Virus record (IMG/VR): IMGVR_UViG_2706794665_000009
Length of the DNA stretch: 13,680 bases
Direction: 5' to 3' (one strand)
DNA from: a virus
Taxonomy: Duplodnaviria > Heunggongvirae > Uroviricota > Caudoviricetes
Each line of letters starts with the position of its first letter. The stretch's first letter is position 1. Position numbers and translations under genes: made by a program. Below the pieces are notes generated by a model. It was not told the origin of the DNA and ran no database searches. It saw nothing but the letters and a program-made list of their open reading frames with translations. This document shows positions 1,807 through 13,582 of this stretch, one piece after another.

Positions 1807-2055
1807 NNNNNNNNNNNNNNNNNNNNNNNNNNNNNNNNNNNNNNNNNNNNNNNNNNNNNNNNNNNNNNNNNNNNNNNNNNNNNNNNNNNNNNNNNNNNNN
1901 NNNNNNNNNNNNNNNNNNNNNNNNNNNNNNNNNNNNNNNNNNNNNNNNNNNNNNNNNNNNNNNNNNNNNNNNNNNNNNNNNNNNNNNNNNNNNNNNNNNN
2001 NNNNNNNNNNNNNNNNNNNNNNNNNNNNNNNNNNNNNNNNNNNNNNNNNNNNNNN
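1807..2055. other. Unresolved sequence (249 N); should hold the K 3' end and the I 5' end
   Basis: Run of N in the given sequence. Confidence 1.
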
Positions 2056-2536
2056 TGACACGGCACCGGAGGCGGTGTACGCCCGTCTTCACGAACAGCT
2101 GGGTGAGGGAACGGTCATCCACATTGTGCCGCGACTGGCCGGGGCCGGAAAGGGTGGACTGCAGATTGTGCTGGGGGCGGCAGCCATCGTGGGCTCTTTC
2201 TTCACTGCCGGGGCATCAATGGCGTTATGGGGTTCAGCCCTGGCAGCCGGTGGTTTTTCTGCCACCACGATGCTGTTTTCACTTGGAGCCAGCATGATTC
2301 TGGGCGGTGTGGCCCAGATGCTGGCCCCGAAGGCAAAAACACCGGATTACCGCGCAACGGATAACGGCAGACAGAACACGTACTTTTCCTCACTGGATAA
2401 CATGATTGCCCAGGGGAACCCGATGCCGGTGCCTTACGGGGAAATGCTGGTTGGCTCCCGCCGTATATCCCAGGACATCAGCACCCGTGATGAAGGCGGG
2501 GGCGGAAAGGTCGTGGTTATCGGGCGGCAGGGGTAA
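2056..2536 (+). CDS. I: Tail assembly protein I, C-terminal ~160 codons (5' end in the N-run)
   Basis: Frame emerging from the gap reads DTAPEAVYARLHEQLGEGTVIHIVPRLAGAGKGG...VVVIGRQG with stop at 2534-2536; Gly/Ala-rich hydrophobic segment as in lambda gpI. Confidence 0.88.
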
Positions 2537-2540
2537 AAAG

Positions 2541-2582
2541 AATAAAAAAATCCCGCAGTGATCGCGGACAGGAACTGCGGGA
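2541..2582 (-). terminator. Candidate intrinsic terminator on the - strand (9-bp stem, then U7 on the - strand)
   Basis: Arms tcccgcagt (2551-2559) and actgcggga (2574-2582) are exact reverse complements; on the - strand the stem is followed by TTTTTTTATT (complement of 2541-2550). Confidence 0.45.
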
Positions 2583-2640
2583 GAGTTACGAAGATTAAGT
2601 GTAAGGAATTATTCTTATATCACGACAAAAAAATTAACGC
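2545..2640 (-). ncRNA. Candidate small non-coding RNA (~95 nt) in the I-J intergenic insert
   Basis: Bounded by a -10/-35 pair upstream and the hairpin plus U-run downstream on the - strand; no ATG-initiated ORF lies within the predicted transcript. Confidence 0.3.
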
Positions 2641-2646
2641 AGAGAA

Positions 2647-2674
2647 ATTATACGCGCCACAGTCAGTTTGTGAA
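2647..2674 (-). promoter_or_regulatory. Sigma70-like promoter on the - strand (TTCACA, 16-bp spacer, TATAAT)
   Basis: Reverse complement of 2647-2652 is TATAAT, a perfect -10; reverse complement of 2669-2674 is TTCACA, 5/6 to the -35 consensus; spacer 16 bp. Confidence 0.4.
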
Positions 2675-2746
2675 AATGTGAAGATATTCAGAATTTTTAT
2701 GCCATTACCGGTTTTAACCAACAGGATTATCGGTGGGCATGAAAGA

Positions 2747-2776
2747 AAACCCCGGTATCTGCTGATACCGGGGTTT
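2747..2776. repeat. Perfect 13-bp inverted repeat with 4-nt loop (strong hairpin, possible bidirectional terminator or insulator)
   Basis: aaaccccggtatc (2747-2759), loop tgct, gataccggggttt (2764-2776); followed on the + strand by the T-rich ctcttt. Confidence 0.55.
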
Positions 2777-2879
2777 CTCTTTAGCATGGCAGAAATGTGT
2801 TTCATGCTTTTCGGGCGAAGGATATCCGACTTCTGTACGGAATGGCAAGTGGCGGTTAATTTATTCAGGGGAAGGCTGT

Positions 2880-5800
2880 ATGGGAAAAGGTGGCGGTAAG
2901 GCACACACGCCTCGTGAGGCGAAGGATAATCTCAAATCCACGCAGATGATGAGCGTGATTGATGCGATTGGTGAGGGACCGATAGAAGGTCCGGTGAAGG
3001 GACTGCAGAGTATCCTGGTGAACAAAACCCCGCTGACGGACACGGACGGTAATCCCGTGATACACGGTGTGACGGCGGTCTGGCGCGCCGGGGAGCAGGA
3101 GCAGACACCACCGGAAGGCTTTGAGTCCTCCGGTGCTGAAACCGGACTGGGCGTGGAAGTGACGAAGGCAAAACCGGTGACGCGCACCATTACGTCCGCG
3201 AACATTGACCGCCTGCGGGTTACCTTCGGGGTGCAGTCACTGGTGCAGACCACGTCAAAGGGTGACCGAAACCCGACATCCGTCCGCCTGCTGATTCAGT
3301 TACAGCGTAACGGTAACTGGGTGACAGAAAAGGATGTCACCATTAACGGCAAGACCACCTCGCAGTTTCTGGCGTCGGTGATTCTGGATAATCTGCCTCC
3401 CCGTCCTTTTAACATCCGGATGGTCCGGGAGACAGCGGACAGCACCACGGACCAGCTGCAGAATAAGACGCTGTGGTCGTCATACACCGAAATCATCGAT
3501 GTGAAACAGTGCTACCCGAACACGGCCATTGTGGGGCTGTAGGTGGATGCGGAGCAGTTCGGCGGCCAGCAGATGACGGTGAACTACCATATCCGCGGTC
3601 GCATCATCCAGGTGCCGTCAAACTATGACCCGGAAAAACGCACGTACAGTGGTATCTGGGACGGCAGTCTGAAACCGGCATACAGCAACAACCCGGCCTG
3701 GTGCCTGTGGGACATGCTGACTCACCCGCGCTACGGCATGGGAAAACGTCTGGGGGCGGCGGATGTGGACAAGTGGGCGCTGTATGCCATCGGGCAGTAC
3801 TGCGACCAGACGGTCCCGGATGGTTTCGGGGGGACCGAGCCGCGGATGACCTTTAATGCGTACCTGGCACAACAGCGTAAGGCGTGGGACGTTCTCAGTG
3901 ATTTCTGCTCTGCGATGCGCTGTATGCCGGTATGGAACGGTCAGACGCTGACGTTCGTTCAGGACCGCCCGTCGGATGTGGTGTGGCCGTACACCAACAG
4001 CGATGTGGTGGTGGATGATAACGGCGTGGGATTCCGCTACAGCTTCAGTGCCCTGAAGGACCGGCACACGGCGGTGGAGGTGAATTACACCGACCCGCAG
4101 AACGGCTGGCAGACCTCCACGGAACTGGTGGAAGACCCGGAAGCCATACTGCGCTACGGACGCAACCTGCTGAAGATGGACGCGTTCGGCTGTACCAGCC
4201 GCGGTCAGGCCCACCGTGCCGGACTGTGGGTGATAAAGACCGAACTGCTGGAAACGCAGACGGTGGATTTCACGCTCGGGTCTCAGGGGCTGCGGCACAC
4301 ACCCGGTGACATCATTGAAATCTGTGATAACGACTATGCCGGGACCCTGACCGGCGGACGTGTCCTGTCCATTGATGCTGCCACCCGCACCCTGACGCTG
4401 GATCGTGAAGTGACACTTCCGGAGACCGGTGCCGCCACGGTGAACCTGATTAACGGCAGCGGTAAGCCGGTGAGTGTGGACATCACCGAACACCCCGCGC
4501 CGGACCGGATACAGGTCAGTACCCTGCCTGATGGTGTGGAGACATACGGGGTGTGGGGACTCTCCCTGCCGTCACTGCGCCGTCGCCTGTTCCGCTGTGT
4601 CTCCGTCCGGGAAAACACGGACGGCACCTTTGCCATCACGGCGGTGCAGCACGTACCGGAAAAAGAAGCCATCGTGGATAACGGTGCCCGCTTTGAGCCG
4701 CAGTCAGGTTCCCTGAACAGCGTCATCCCACCGGCAGTGCAGCACCTGACGGTGGAGGTGAGCGCAGCTGACGGACAGTATCTGGCGCAGGCGAAATGGG
4801 ACACGCCGCGGGTGGTGAAGGGTGTGCGCTTCAGTCTGCGCCTGACCAGTGGTAAGGGAACGGATGCCAGACTGGTGACCACCGCCATCACCGCAGACAC
4901 GGAGCACCGTTTCAGCGGCCTGCCGCTCGGGGAATACACCCTGACGGTGCGGGCGATAAACAGCTATGGCCAGCAGGGTGAACCTGCCACCACCACATTC
5001 CGGATTGCCGCACCGGCAGCACCGTCGCGGATTGAGCTGACGCCGGGCTATTTTCAGATAACGGCGGTCCCGCGTCTTGCGGTGTATGACCCGACGGTAC
5101 AGTTTGAGTTCTGGTTCTCGGAAAAGCGGATTACCGATATCAGGCAGGTTGAAACCACAGCACGCTATCTTGGCACGGCGCTGTACTGGATAGCCGCCAG
5201 TATCAATATCAAACCGGGCCATGATTATTACTTTTATATCCGCAGTGTGAACACCGTTGGCAAATCGGCATTCGTGGAGGCTGTTGGTCAGCCGAGTGAT
5301 GATGCATCCGGTTATCTGGATTTTTTCAAAGGCGAGATAGGGAAAACCCATCTGGCTCAGGAGCTGTGGACGCAGATTGATAACGGTCAGCTTGCGCCTG
5401 ACCTGGCTGAAATCAGGACGTCCATTACGGATGTCAGCAATGAAATCACGCAGACCGTCAATAAAAAACTGGAAAATCAGAGTGCGGCAATCCAGCAGAT
5501 ACAGAAGGTTCAGGTTGATACAAATAATAATCTGAACAGCATGTGGGCTGTGAAGCTGCAGCAGATGCAGGACGGACGCCTTTATATCGCGGGTATTGGT
5601 GCCGGTATTGAGAACACCCCTGACGGCATGCAGAGTCAGGTGCTGCTGGCGGCAGACAGGATTGCGATGATTAATCCTGCGAATGGCAACACAAAGCCGA
5701 TGTTTGTTGGTCAGGGCGATCAGATATTCATGAACGACGTGTTCCTGAAACGCCTGACGGCTCCCACCATTACCAGCGGCGGTAATCCTCCGGCATTTTC

Positions 5801-6353
5801 CCTGACACCGGACGGAAAACTGACCGCTAAAAATGCAGATATCAGTGGCAGTGTGAATGCGAACGCCGGGACGCTCAACAATGTCACAATTAATGAGAAC
5901 TGTCAGATTAAGGGGAAACTGTCAGCCAACCAGATTGAAGGCGATATAGTCAAAACAGTGGGTAAGGCTTTTCCGCGGGACTCCCGGGCACCGGAGCGGT
6001 GGCCATCAGGGACCATTACCGTCAGGATTTATGACGATCAGCCTTTTGACAGGCAAATTGTTATTCCGGCGGTGGCATTCAGCGGCGCTAAACATGAGCG
6101 GGAGAATAACGATATTTATTCGTCATGCCGCCTGATAGTACGGAAAAACGGTGCTGAAATTTATAACCGTACCGCGCTGGATAATACGCTGATTTACAGT
6201 GGTGTTATTGATATGCCAGCTGGTCGCGGCCACATGACGCTGGAGTTTTCGGTGTCAGCATGGCTGGTGAATAACTGGTATCCCACAGCAAGTATCAGCG
6301 ATTTGCTGGTTGTGGTGATGAAGAAAGCCACCGCAGGCATCAGTATCAGCTGA
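2880..6353 (+). pseudogene. J: Host specificity protein J (central tail fibre / tail tip), full length but interrupted by an in-frame TAG at 3540-3542
   Basis: Track ORFs 2880..3542 (220 aa) and 3543..6353 (936 aa) are in the same frame, separated only by TAG. The combined 1157-codon product matches lambda gpJ end to end as recalled (MGKGGGKAHTPREAKDNLKST... through ...[23 protein letters not shown]... to the C-terminus). SD-like AGGGGAAGG precedes the ATG at 2880. Confidence 0.9.
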
Positions 6354-7171: not shown

Positions 7172-10100
7172 ATGACAGTAAAAATTTCTGGCGTGCTTAA
7201 AGATGGCACAGGAAAACCAGTACAGAACTGCACCATTGTGCTGAAGGCCAGACGAACCAGCAGCACGGTGGTGGTGAACACGGTGGCCTCTGAAAATCCG
7301 GATGAAGCCGGACGTTACAGCATGGATGTTGAGCATGGTCAGTACAGCGTCACCCTGCTGGTTGAAGGTTTTCCGCCTTCACATGCCGGGACCATTACCG
7401 TCTATGAAGGTTCCAGATCAGGTACGCTGAATGATTTTCTCGGTGCCATGACGGAGGATGATGTCCGACCGGAGGCACTGCGCCGCTTTGAGCAGATGGT
7501 GGAAGAGGTGTCACGTAACGCCTCCGCGGTTGCACAGAATACGGCAGCCGCGAAAAAATCAGCCAGCGATGCCAGTGCATCAGCCAGCGAGGCGGCAACT
7601 CATGCAACCGATGCTGCAGCCTCAGCACGTGCCGCCAGCACGTCAGCCGGACAGGCCGCGTCGTCGGCTCAGTCAGCGTCTTCCAGCGCAGGAACGGCAT
7701 CGACAAAGACCCGTGAAGCAGCAAAAAGTGCTGCTGCTGCAGAGTCATCAAAAAGCGCGGCAGCTACCAGCGCCAGTGCCGCGAAAACGTCAGAAACGAA
7801 TGCCGCAGCATCACAAAAATCGGCAGCCACTTCTGCATCCACAGCGACCACGAAGGCGTCAGAAGCTGCCACCTCGGCACGGGGTGCGGCGGCCTCAAAA
7901 GAGGCAGCGAAATCTTCAGAAACGAATGCATCATCAAGTGCCAGTAGTGCAGCTTCCTCGGCAACGGCGGCAGGAAATTCCGCGAAGGCGGCAAAAACGT
8001 CCGAGACGAACNNNNNNNNNNNNNNNNNNNNNNNNNNNNNNNNNNNNNNNNNNNNNNNNNNNNNNNNNNNNNNNNNNNNNNNNNNNNNNNNNNNNNNNNN
8101 NNNNNNNNNNNNNNNNNNNNNNNNNNNNNNNNNNNNNNNNNNNNNNNNNNNNNNNNNNNNNNNNNNNNNNNNNNNNNNNNNNNNNNNNNNNNNNNNNNNN
8201 NNNNNNNNNNNNNNNNNNNNNNNNNNNNNNNNNNNNNNNNNNNNNNNNNNNNNNNNNNNNNNNNNNNNNNNNNNNNNNNNNNNNNNNNNNNNNNNNNNNN
8301 NNNNNNNNNNNNNNNNNNNNNNNNNNNNNNNNNNNNNNNTGCTTCAAAAGATGAGGCGACCAGACAAGCGTCAGCAGCGAAAGGTAGTGCCACGACAGCA
8401 ACAACGAAAGCATCAGAGGCGGCAGGCAGTGCGACGGCTGCATCTCAGAGCAAAGTTGCTGCTGAATCCGCGGCAACGCGCGCCGAGACAGCAGCAAAAC
8501 GGGCAGAGGATATTGCATCCGCCGTGGCGCTGGAGGATGCGAGCACGACGAAAAAGGGGATAGTACAGCTCAGCAGTGCAACAAACAGCACCAGTGAAAA
8601 GCTGGCGGCAACGCCAAAGGCAGTTAAAACTGTTAAAGATAGTTCAGTTCAAAAAACTGGCGACACAATGGGAGGGCAGTTAAAAATCAGCACGATAAAT
8701 GCTCTTCGAATATTCAACCAAGCCTTTGGCCTTATTTTTAGGCGTTCCGAAGATCATCTTCATCTTATTCCGACTAATGAAGGGGAGGGGGAAAATGGAG
8801 ACATCGGTTCATTAAGACCATTCTCTATAAACTTAAGATCAGGGTTGGTGTCCATCGGTAATGGACTAAAAGTTGGTGGTAGTGTTACTGGTAATTTGAC
8901 CGGAAACGCAGATACTGCGACCAAGATCAAGACAGCACGTAAGATTGGGGGCGTGGCATTTGATGGATCGGCAGATATCAACTTGCCTGGAGTCAACGCT
9001 ACCGGTAATCAAAACACTACAGGTAATGCTGCGACCGCCACGAAACTTCAGGCAGCCAGAACGATTAACGGTGTGTCATTTGATGGTAGTGCAAATATCA
9101 CATTGACCCCTTCAAATATTGGGGCATTGGCATTAACTGGAGGGACTCTTTCAGGTGGTTTAACTGCTGCTGGTGAGGTTATTTCAAGGTCAGCAAATGG
9201 TCTGCGTATTGCCTATGGCAACTATGGATTCTTTATCCGAAATGATGGATCAAACACATATTTTATGTTGACAGATTCGGGTAACAGTCTTGGTACGCAC
9301 AATAGCTTAAGGCCGTTTATAATTAGTAACCATACTGGCAATGTTACAATTGCAACTAAATTAAACGCGAGTGGTGGTATCACTGGATCTTTATCGGGTA
9401 ATGCAAGCACAGCAACCAAATTGCAAACTGCAAGGACAATTAACGGCGTAAAATTTGACGGCTCGGCAAATATTGAAGCGTTTCCGCCAGGTGTTCCGCT
9501 GCCGTGGCCATCAGATACACCACCTGCAGGTTATGCAATCATGCAGGGGCAGACGTTTGATAAGGCAGCATATCCGAAACTGGCTATTGCCTATCCTTCA
9601 GGTGTTATTCCAGATATGCGCGGCTGGACAATCAAGGGCAAACCCGCCAGTGGCCGGGCCGTATTGTCTCAGGAACAGGACGGCATAAAATCGCACACCC
9701 ACAGCGCCAGCGCATCCAGTACGGATTTGGGGACGAAAACCACATCGTCGTTTGATTACGGCACTAAATCCACGAATAACACCGGGGCGCATACGCACAG
9801 TCTGAGTGGCTCTACGGGGTCTGCCGGTGTTCATACTCATGGTAATGGTATTCGTTGGCCAGGAGGCGGCGGTTCTGCGTTAGCATTTTATGATGGCGGT
9901 GGGTTCACTTATGTCCAGAATTCACAGTATCAAGTAAGCCCGGAGACTTCTTCCTATAGATCGTATTATCAACGTATTCAGACACAGTCAGCAGGTGCTC
10001 ATACCCACTCGCTGTCTGGTACTGCAGCAAGTTCTGGCGCACATGCACATACTGTAGGTATTGGTGCGCATACGCACTCCGTTGCGATTGGTTCACATGG

Positions 10101-10185: not shown

Positions 10186-10769
10186 TGGCATTCAGAATGA
10201 GTGAACAAGCACGGACCATAAAAATTTATAATCTGCTGGCCGGAACTAATGAATTTATTGGTGAAGGTGACGCATATATTCCGCCTCATACAGGTCTGCC
10301 AGCAAACAGTACCGATATTGCACCACCAGATATTCCTGCTGGCTTTGTGGCTGTTTTCAACAGTGATGAGGCATCGTGGCATCTCGTTGAAGACCATCGG
10401 GGGAAAACGGTTTATGACGTAGCGTCAGGGGACGAGTTATTTATTTCTGAACTCGGTCCGTTACCGGAAAATGTTACCTGGTTATCGCCGGAAGGGGAGT
10501 TTCAGAAGTGGAACGGCACAGCCTGGGTGAAGGATACGGAAGCAGAAAAACTGTTCCGGATCCGGGAGGCGGAAGAAACAAAAAACAACCTGATGCAGGT
10601 AGCCAGTGAGCATATTGCGCCGCTTCAGGATGCTGCAGATCTGGAAATTGCAACGGAGGAAGAAACCTCATTGCTGGAAGCCTGGAAAAAGTATCGGGTG
10701 TTGCTGAACCGTGTTGATACATCAACTGCACCTGATATTGAGTGGCCTACGAACCCTGTCAGGGAGTAA
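10185..10769 (+). CDS. tfa: Tail fibre assembly protein Tfa
   Basis: 194-aa ORF ([44 protein letters not shown]...) near-identical to lambda Tfa as recalled; start overlaps the stf stop (TAATG). Confidence 0.93.
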
Positions 10770-12459: not shown

Positions 12460-12729
12460 NNNNNNNNNNNNNNNNNNNNNNNNNNNNNNNNNNNNNNNNN
12501 NNNNNNNNNNNNNNNNNNNNNNNNNNNNNNNNNNNNNNNNNNNNNNNNNNNNNNNNNNNNNNNNNNNNNNNNNNNNNNNNNNNNNNNNNNNNNNNNNNNN
12601 NNNNNNNNNNNNNNNNNNNNNNNNNNNNNNNNNNNNNNNNNNNNNNNNNNNNNNNNNNNNNNNNNNNNNNNNNNNNNNNNNNNNNNNNNNNNNNNNNNNN
12701 NNNNNNNNNNNNNNNNNNNNNNNNNNNNN
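12460..12729. other. Unresolved sequence (270 N) inside the Rha-like gene region
   Basis: Run of N. Confidence 1.
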
Positions 12730-13032: not shown

Positions 13033-13066
13033 GATCACCACCTCTGACGCCAATCAGGGAGGTGGT
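13033..13066. repeat. 10-bp perfect inverted repeat with 14-nt spacer, 26 bp upstream of the Rha-like start (candidate operator or 5' UTR hairpin)
   Basis: tcaccacctc (13033-13042) and gaggtggtga (13057-13066) are exact reverse complements. Confidence 0.45.
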
Positions 13067-13582
13067 GAGACGTACAGGGTTGGCGTAACCGGTCATCACA
13101 AAACCCGGCGCGGATTTCTCCGCCCCTGCACGCCCCACCATAATGCGAATGTGGCAATGCTTAACGCAAAAAAAACCGCAAACGCGGCTATGCGTTGTGA
13201 TGTTATCCGAGACGCCAATCCCGACAACCGATTTTGCGGTTGTGTGAGGAATATAGCCCCGGAGAACAAAAACTGTCAACGGGCAAAAAAATTTCCGTTA
13301 TCAGGAATGTATAAAATTAAAGCGATCGAGCAAAAAATCCTTTCTGCAAAACTAAAAAAGATTTCAATAAAATCAGGCAGTTAAAAACACGGAAAACGGT
13401 ATAAAAAAGCGCCTCAAAATCCTGTTTTTTCTTTCAGATACAATGTCTTATTGCATTTTTTAAAACATGTCAGTGTGGTACATGGATATCGATACCATCG
13501 CCAATTATAAACTGGGCGGTGCACAGCAACATGATAGCGTACGCCTCGATCCGTGGGTGTTTATGTTCTCAGCAGGATATCG

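Follow-up and report, generated by a model that had tools for sequence, protein, structure and literature searches.

The minus strand of positions 2674-2544 in the window, a stretch of 13,680 nucleotides that comes from a lambdoid E. coli prophage and represents its tail region, probably carries a self-contained small RNA (sRNA) gene of the pasB / EcOnc22-24 family. Judged from its sequence, it would be a non-coding 'moron' between the tail genes I and J, expressed from the prophage, driven by sigma-70, dependent on Hfq and acting in trans. We refer to the form found here as allele W. Expression, size and Hfq dependence have been shown in homologues from strains E2348/69 and Sakai, and many RNA partners in that of E2348/69; we infer the same for allele W by homology. 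The coordinates of all features are collected in Table 1.

The sRNA family is already established, and the window adds no new principle. What is new is that allele W is common, also in ATCC 25922, yet unannotated, not in Rfam and of a kind that escapes the published search criteria. Further, PasB of enteropathogenic E. coli (EPEC) and EcOnc22/23 of enterohaemorrhagic E. coli (EHEC) are found to belong to the same gene family, so that the data on them can be pooled. Finally, the invariant three AAN repeats and UUAAUCUU provide a concrete hypothesis for the seed and the Hfq site.

Table 1. Features of the spacer between I and J and of the flanking genes, in window positions.
Feature	Position	Strand	Remark
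I (tail assembly gene), 3' part	2056..2536	+	5' part masked by Ns; stop TAA 2534-2536
J (tail tip gene)	2880..6353	+	ATG at 2880; Pfam GpJ domains; in-frame TAG 3540-3542
pasB-family sRNA, allele W, predicted	2544..2640	-	homology to E2348/69 PasB, identical terminator, no ATG
-35 hexamer TTCACA	2669..2674	-	kept in all compared alleles, including allele F and the Sakai Sp15/Sp14 allele
-10 hexamer TATAAT	2647..2652	-	16 bp from the -35; identical in E2348/69, ASU11 and PhiR5_1
AT-rich block directly upstream of the -35, AUAAAAAUUCUGAAUAUC...	2675..2710	-	edge of the pasB module
Internal U7 run near the RNA 5' end	2627..2633	-	U-run conserved in 22/22 aligned alleles
AAG-AAU-AAU, three A-A-N repeats	2608..2616	-	candidate ARN-type motif for the Hfq distal face
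UUAAUCUUC with family-invariant core AUCUU (2591-2595)	2590..2598	-	unpaired stretch; candidate seed
Intrinsic terminator	2544..2582	-	9-bp stem, 2582-2574 with 2559-2551, then U7 2550-2544
'Long module' between pasB promoter and J start	2711..2879	.	exchangeable filler; no credible ORF, no Rfam family
Perfect 13-bp hairpin, 4-nt loop	2747..2776	.	U-rich tails on both strands

The spacer between the I stop and the J start is 343 bp long with 41.7% G+C, compared with 60.7% in the part of I that can be read and 56.7% in J. This agrees with the first-pass annotation, which had described an AT-rich insert of about 340 bp between two genes given as adjacent in lambda; the lambda spacer is indeed only 60 bp. 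The spacer thus combines the marks by which a moron is recognized: extra DNA relative to lambda, an atypical composition, and a promoter and terminator of its own. No credible coding frame was found on either strand of it. A 601-bp stretch around the spacer is 100% identical in many complete E. coli genomes, including ATCC 25922, where the flanking genes in the identical DNA are annotated as 'tail assembly protein' and 'gpJ'. We take the identity of gene I from this RefSeq annotation; a Pfam search with the unmasked C-terminal part of I gave no match. Three masked runs of N are present in the window (1807-2055, 8012-8339 and 12460-12729), and the first of them covers the K/I boundary together with the 5' part of I. 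The in-frame stop in J (GGG CTG TAG GTG) divides the gene into 220 + 936 codons, while the annotation of ATCC 25922 has the homologous J as intact. The TAG may be a sequencing error, or else the prophage may be defective in its tail.

On the minus strand, TTCACA-16-TATAAT (2674-2647) agrees with the sigma-70 consensus at 11 of 12 positions. The spacer region contains three promoter-like sites, while shuffled sequences contain 0.7 +/- 0.7. In allele F and in the Sakai Sp15/Sp14 allele the -10 regions differ, although the -35 hexamer is kept. The AT-rich block upstream of the -35 is conserved despite lying outside the pattern used in the search, and it may be an UP element or a site for a regulator; in phages with the short module described below, homology to the window stops near 2700. 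From the predicted +1 at G2640 to the end of the U7 run the transcript measures 97 nt, or 84 nt if its 5' end corresponds to the published 5' end of PasB (window 2627), which coincides with the 3' edge of the internal U7 run. The terminator has a folding energy of -15.5 kcal/mol (z = -4.1), and its 3' end is 8 nt from the stop codon of I. There is no ATG in the RNA, and GTG and TTG open just two frames of 2 codons each. The near-consensus sigma70 promoter, the 9-bp GC-rich stem followed by U7, the length of about 95 nt and the lack of an ATG-initiated frame had all been noted in the first-pass annotation, and each was recovered at its place. A unit of promoter and terminator is present at the same I-J junction in more than 1,700 complete E. 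coli genomes, and because of this recurrence we do not regard it as a chance occurrence.

A comparison with Rfam 15, one of the checks proposed in the first-pass annotation, returned no family covering 2537-2879, either at the gathering threshold or with E up to 10. The sub-threshold matches in the spacer are largely located in the hairpin regions, and the best of them reaches 19.6 bits against a gathering score of 60. None of the genome or phage sequences that match the spacer has an annotation there of relevance to RNA. The literature was also searched for the literal sequences of allele W, of allele B and of the terminator, with no match. Elsewhere in the window three Rfam matches reach the gathering threshold: IS009 at 10528-10726 (+, 225 bits), a C4 antisense RNA at 13058-13145 (-, 76 bits) and isrK at 13169-13243 (-, 72 bits). 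The first of these is a likeness to the surroundings of PasB, as IS009 matches are frequent neighbours of PasB within 10 kb (bioRxiv 10.64898/2026.05.13.724894).

The closest described relative is PasB, an Hfq-dependent sRNA from prophage PP6 of EPEC O127:H6 E2348/69 that was confirmed by Northern blot and RIL-seq (PMC8550237). It is placed on the minus strand of NC_011601.1 at 1466343..1466261, 83 nt, and its Northern probe is AATCCCGCAGTGATCGCGGAGCT (Table S6, PMC8550237). The Northern band and its Hfq-dependent stability are accompanied by 37 RIL-seq interactions, and log2 fold changes of -6.8 and -2.4 are given in Table S2 (PMC8550237). PasB does not occur in the motif table S7 of the same study (Pearl Mizrahi et al. 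2021, PMC8550237). In the E2348/69 genome we find PasB between a 'tail assembly protein' that ends at 1466255 and gpJ, which starts at 1466496, and on the opposite strand. Allele W and PasB therefore lie at the same junction, between the I stop and the J start, and both are antisense to the tail genes.

When the window is aligned with E2348/69, ASU11 and PhiR5_1, the promoter block is nearly identical from about -60 to +8 and the terminator is identical, while the body of the RNA can be aligned throughout but is divergent. From the predicted +1, allele W and PasB agree in 77 of 104 aligned columns; against the published 83-nt PasB the agreement is 65 of 89 columns, with the 25-nt terminator and U-tail, identical in the two, as the longest common word. 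The AAN repeats and the AUCUU core are present in both. The body is thus ~74% identical overall and ~62% outside the terminator, and the PasB probe matches window positions 2548-2567 at 20 of 23 positions. The upstream modules differ, with 199 nt in the window and 97 nt in E2348/69. The 5' end published for PasB is based on read coverage; relative to the +1 predicted from the promoter it is displaced downstream by 13-15 nt, and this offset suggests either processing of the RNA or an imprecise mapping or estimate. Variants of PasB that have been published differ by few nucleotides (bioRxiv 10.64898/2026.05.13.724894); the PasB-2 variant (C27A) of that 2026 survey corresponds to our ASU11-type allele.

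A second set of relatives comes from EHEC O157:H7 Sakai, where EcOnc22 (Sp15), EcOnc23 (Sp14) and EcOnc24 (Sp11) were reported as related Hfq-CRAC sRNAs (Tree et al. 2014, PMC4104026). On Northern blots they measure ~85 nt, and they are 'destabilised' without Hfq (PMC4104026). We checked the placement at Sp15 and Sp14. The old and the new Sakai record presumably differ by 128 bp in length, and this was allowed for when placing the coordinates. With this shift EcOnc22 and EcOnc23 map between I and J of Sp15 and Sp14, respectively, and run antisense to the tail genes. Further, the first 23 nt of the EcOnc22/23/24 probe, GGGAGAGAACGATGAAGATTAAC, are the exact complement of the RNA at the Sp15/Sp14 junction; the remainder of the probe differs at few positions in the stored text.

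The Sakai RNA (1334-1427 in the Sp15 locus extract and 1266-1358 in that of Sp14) carries GUUAAUCUUCAU, AAA-AAU-AAC and CCCGCAG...CUGCGGG-U7, that is, the architecture of PasB. With allele W it shares GUUAAUCUUC, the AAN repeats, the CCCGCAG...CUGCGGG-U7 terminator and the antisense position between I and J, and the UUAAUCUUC element is found in the Sp15 allele too. The Sp15 allele and allele W agree in 77 of 106 columns (73% identical). They differ in the -10 region and at the 5' end, which read GCUGCAUUAC in the Sakai allele and GCGUUAAU in allele W. A connection between PasB and EcOnc22-24 is absent from Table S6 of the EPEC paper (PMC8550237) and from the main text of the 2026 preprint. 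A review lists the target of EcOnc22 as 'unknown'. One more pasB-like allele is present in Sakai Sp9 (extract 9540-9660); it has a shorter terminator, CCCCGCA-ACUC-UGCGGGG, and the DNA next to it has lost K and I through a deletion. A search for an EcOnc entry at this copy (17944xx-17947xx) found none.

These homologues, which lie at the same junction and in the same orientation and have been detected experimentally as Hfq-dependent sRNAs (PasB and EcOnc22/23), support the original reading of the unit as a small regulatory RNA. The first-pass annotation also did not recognise it as a described lambda element. It is indeed absent from lambda; however, it had already been described in other lambdoid prophages.

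To see how the family varies we sampled IMG/VR contigs in two ways, by the exact promoter pattern and by anchoring on the N-terminus of J, where the second avoids the bias of a single promoter. At least eight allele classes were obtained, to which the Sakai Sp9 and Sp15/Sp14 alleles can be added, and 22 distinct allele RNAs were aligned (alignment A2). The 5' GCGUUA, the U-run, AUCUU and the U-tail are invariant or nearly so in these 22 alleles. Within the AAN repeats, A23, A26, A29 and A32 are invariant and A25, A28 and A31 are at least 90% conserved, while the N positions vary between alleles. The core A46 U47 C48 U49 U50 does not vary, and the terminator stem CCCGCAG/CUGCGGG is intact in 20 of the 22 alleles, with a single mismatch in the remaining two. 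Three elements stay constant across the at least eight classes: the set of three AAN repeats, the UUAAUCUU core, and the CCCGCAG/CUGCGGG stem with the U7 run after it. Allele W has the family's traits of position and sequence: the location between I and J, the antisense strand, end-to-end homology, and the AAN repeats, AUCUU and stem with U-tail.

The first-pass annotation had also proposed a covariance and fold analysis. In the RNAalifold consensus of the 22 alleles the terminator stem is the sole shared structure, the body is open, and both the AAN repeats and AUCUU are unpaired; no covarying pair was found in this fold, as the stem is almost unvarying. Hence the proposed analysis recovered a common stem but no covariation: it is the conservation that supports function, while the structure gains no covariation support.

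In E. coli the distal face of Hfq binds (A-R-N)n sequences and the proximal face binds U-rich 3' ends. The conserved positions form a candidate for the pattern that selection for Hfq loading and for a single-stranded seed would leave. Allele W further shows the sequence features of a class II-type sRNA, with a U-tail of at least six residues (U7) and an unpaired (ARN)n motif. The seed of PasB was placed just 5' of the terminator by Zhu, Shabalina and Storz 2026 (bioRxiv 10.64898/2026.05.13.724894). The conserved pattern agrees with this placement and with the strong Hfq dependence of PasB and EcOnc22.

From these elements a mechanism can be proposed. In a lysogen, host sigma-70 RNA polymerase would start at about G2640 from the near-consensus promoter, and transcription would stop at the stem and U7 terminator just before the I stop, giving an RNA of ~97 nt that is possibly trimmed to ~84 nt. 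The U-tail and the three AAN repeats would load this RNA onto Hfq, and its unstructured middle, centred on the invariant UUAAUCUU, would pair with mRNAs in trans, so that their translation or stability is altered. As allele W differs from the studied alleles around the core, its set of targets may differ as well.

The position of the gene also raises the question of action in cis, where the RNA, or head-on transcription, would target the spacer between I and J in the late tail transcript, or else the matching transcript of a related phage that superinfects the cell, trimming the expression of J or hindering a competitor. By its position the RNA is the perfect complement of ~97 nt of spacer in the late operon, beginning 8 nt past the I stop; the promoter points head-on into the late operon; and the gene sits at this single junction in every locus examined. 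Moreover, the terminator and promoter blocks are common to the alleles, which makes partial cross-pairing between phages possible. However, the homologous sRNA is abundant in uninduced cultures, in which the late operon is expected to be silent, and the ribosome-binding site of J lies 240-340 nt from the paired region. The combination of AAN repeats and an invariant core with variable flanks also fits an Hfq-dependent sRNA acting in trans better. Published data point to targets in trans, and because of the trans interactome and the expression in uninduced cells we consider action in cis as secondary and unlikely.

We found the body of allele W in 800 of the 5,426 complete E. coli genomes searched (~15%), with an identity of at least 99% in 634 records. 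The published E2348/69-type body is found in 956 of the 5,426 genomes. At none of these places is either body annotated. When one genome per species was scanned with the exact promoter, Escherichia albertii was the only species found, so that at this stringency the family seems to be confined to Escherichia.

That such a frequent allele went unnoticed can be related to how the family has been searched for. The 2026 survey used BLAST with a word size of 28 and required a coverage of more than 75% (bioRxiv 10.64898/2026.05.13.724894). With the 83-nt PasB as query, a word size of 28 finds nothing in the window, and a word size of 11 covers only 30% of the query. Allele W would thus lie outside what that survey could see, and the reported distribution of PasB probably undercounts the family.

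Another reading is that the gene in this prophage is an inert passenger, a decaying or neutral copy of the moron whose RNA, if it is made at all, regulates nothing. The prophage does look defective because of the in-frame TAG in J, no target or phenotype is on record for PasB or EcOnc22-24, and in prophages that carry sodC the pasB body persists without its promoter. Against this, the promoter has kept its near-consensus form and the terminator is intact, the same allele recurs almost unchanged in the hundreds of records counted above, and the invariant positions are those expected for Hfq binding and seed pairing rather than a random subset. On this evidence we find an inert copy very unlikely, and a functional sRNA gene remains our preferred reading.

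How the alleles relate to each other is a separate matter. It is possible, although we would lean against it, that pasB, EcOnc22-24 and allele W are forms of one highly polymorphic sRNA cassette fixed at the lambdoid I-J junction, where recombination preserves four parts (the promoter-proximal block, the AAN repeats, the core UUAAUCUU and the terminator) and swaps the nucleotides that flank the core. If so, different prophages would deliver different target specificities, or all of them would use the invariant core to reach a single mRNA, of host or phage, that they have in common. Allele W would then be an unrecognised major allele, in about 15% of complete E. coli genomes, with a target set of its own.

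The right half of the spacer behaves as a unit separate from the sRNA gene. In 1,442 E. coli records the stretch 2701-2870 recurs with an identity of at least 99%, and always at the I-J junction. This long module occurs together with each of the pasB alleles W, B and C; its alternative is a short module of 97 nt, not homologous to it, that carries a hairpin of its own. The perfect 13-bp hairpin that the first-pass annotation had placed just upstream of the promoter exists as described; however, it belongs to this exchangeable module and not to the sRNA unit. On either strand it folds at -29 to -32 kcal/mol (z about -6), and its form suggests a bidirectional terminator. At 2848-2819 the minus strand also has a weak promoter-like site. 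The region 2701-2879 could be a second small transcription unit or small RNA, an insulator for the pasB promoter, or a remnant.

Other sequences occupy the junction in some phages. Six of 80 J-anchored viral contigs carry a minus-strand Cu,Zn-SOD (sodC-like) moron with its own terminator between J and the pasB body (660-1400 in one contig). There it replaces the pasB promoter, so the sRNA would be either without a promoter or derived from the sodC 3' UTR. In one contig, unrelated sequence, possibly an insertion element, follows the long module and replaces both the promoter and the body of pasB. The I-J spacer of lambda contains, at 15459-15499, the hairpin AAACCGCC-TGCG-GGCGGTTT, which on the plus strand is followed by a U-rich tail. 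In short-module phages a plus-strand hairpin without homology to it occupies the corresponding position. The late operon may therefore have a hairpin directly before J as a general feature.

This suggests one more explanation, namely that the hairpins in the spacer serve the late operon, for instance by setting the I:J ratio through termination between the cistrons or through RNA processing, and that the minus-strand promoter is incidental. The terminator-like plus-strand hairpins of lambda and the short-module phages fit this, and so does the U-rich plus-strand tail of the 13-bp hairpin. In contrast, the hairpin of the pasB terminator has no U-tail on the plus strand, and RNAs of minus-strand polarity have been detected experimentally in the homologues. 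Such a role could suit the 13-bp hairpin but not the sRNA unit, for which we regard it as highly improbable. The unit at 2674-2544 is best read as an sRNA gene that acts in trans.

A number of other prophage RNAs were considered and rejected as the identity of the unit. The gene svsR is located at the 3' end of cI; for HnrS, a text search gave no tail-region or antisense context; and PasA, PasC and PasD adjoin lysis and esterase genes. The anti-sRNAs AgvB and AsxR (RF02702/RF02703; EcOnc01-03) gave no Rfam match at the gathering threshold or with E up to 10. In EHEC lambdoid prophages their place is downstream of PR', the late promoter; they measure 51-60 nt and are unrelated in sequence. In general terms they nevertheless resemble the pasB family, as short Hfq-binding RNAs of prophages with conserved 3' parts, variable target-pairing parts and fixed moron sites.

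With the protein-coding morons of lambdoid late operons (sodC, lom, bor) the unit shares the organization as an AT-rich insert with its own promoter and terminator, and the sodC-like moron even occupies the same I-J junction in some contigs; the difference is that the unit in the window encodes no protein. Finally, Schu et al. are said to have described in 2015 the class II Hfq-dependent sRNAs of E. coli, of the ChiX, MgrR and CyaR type. There is no sequence relationship between these and the pasB family, but the two have in common an ARN-type motif, a U-rich terminator tail, a largely unstructured body and, in the homologues of allele W, a strong dependence on Hfq for stability.
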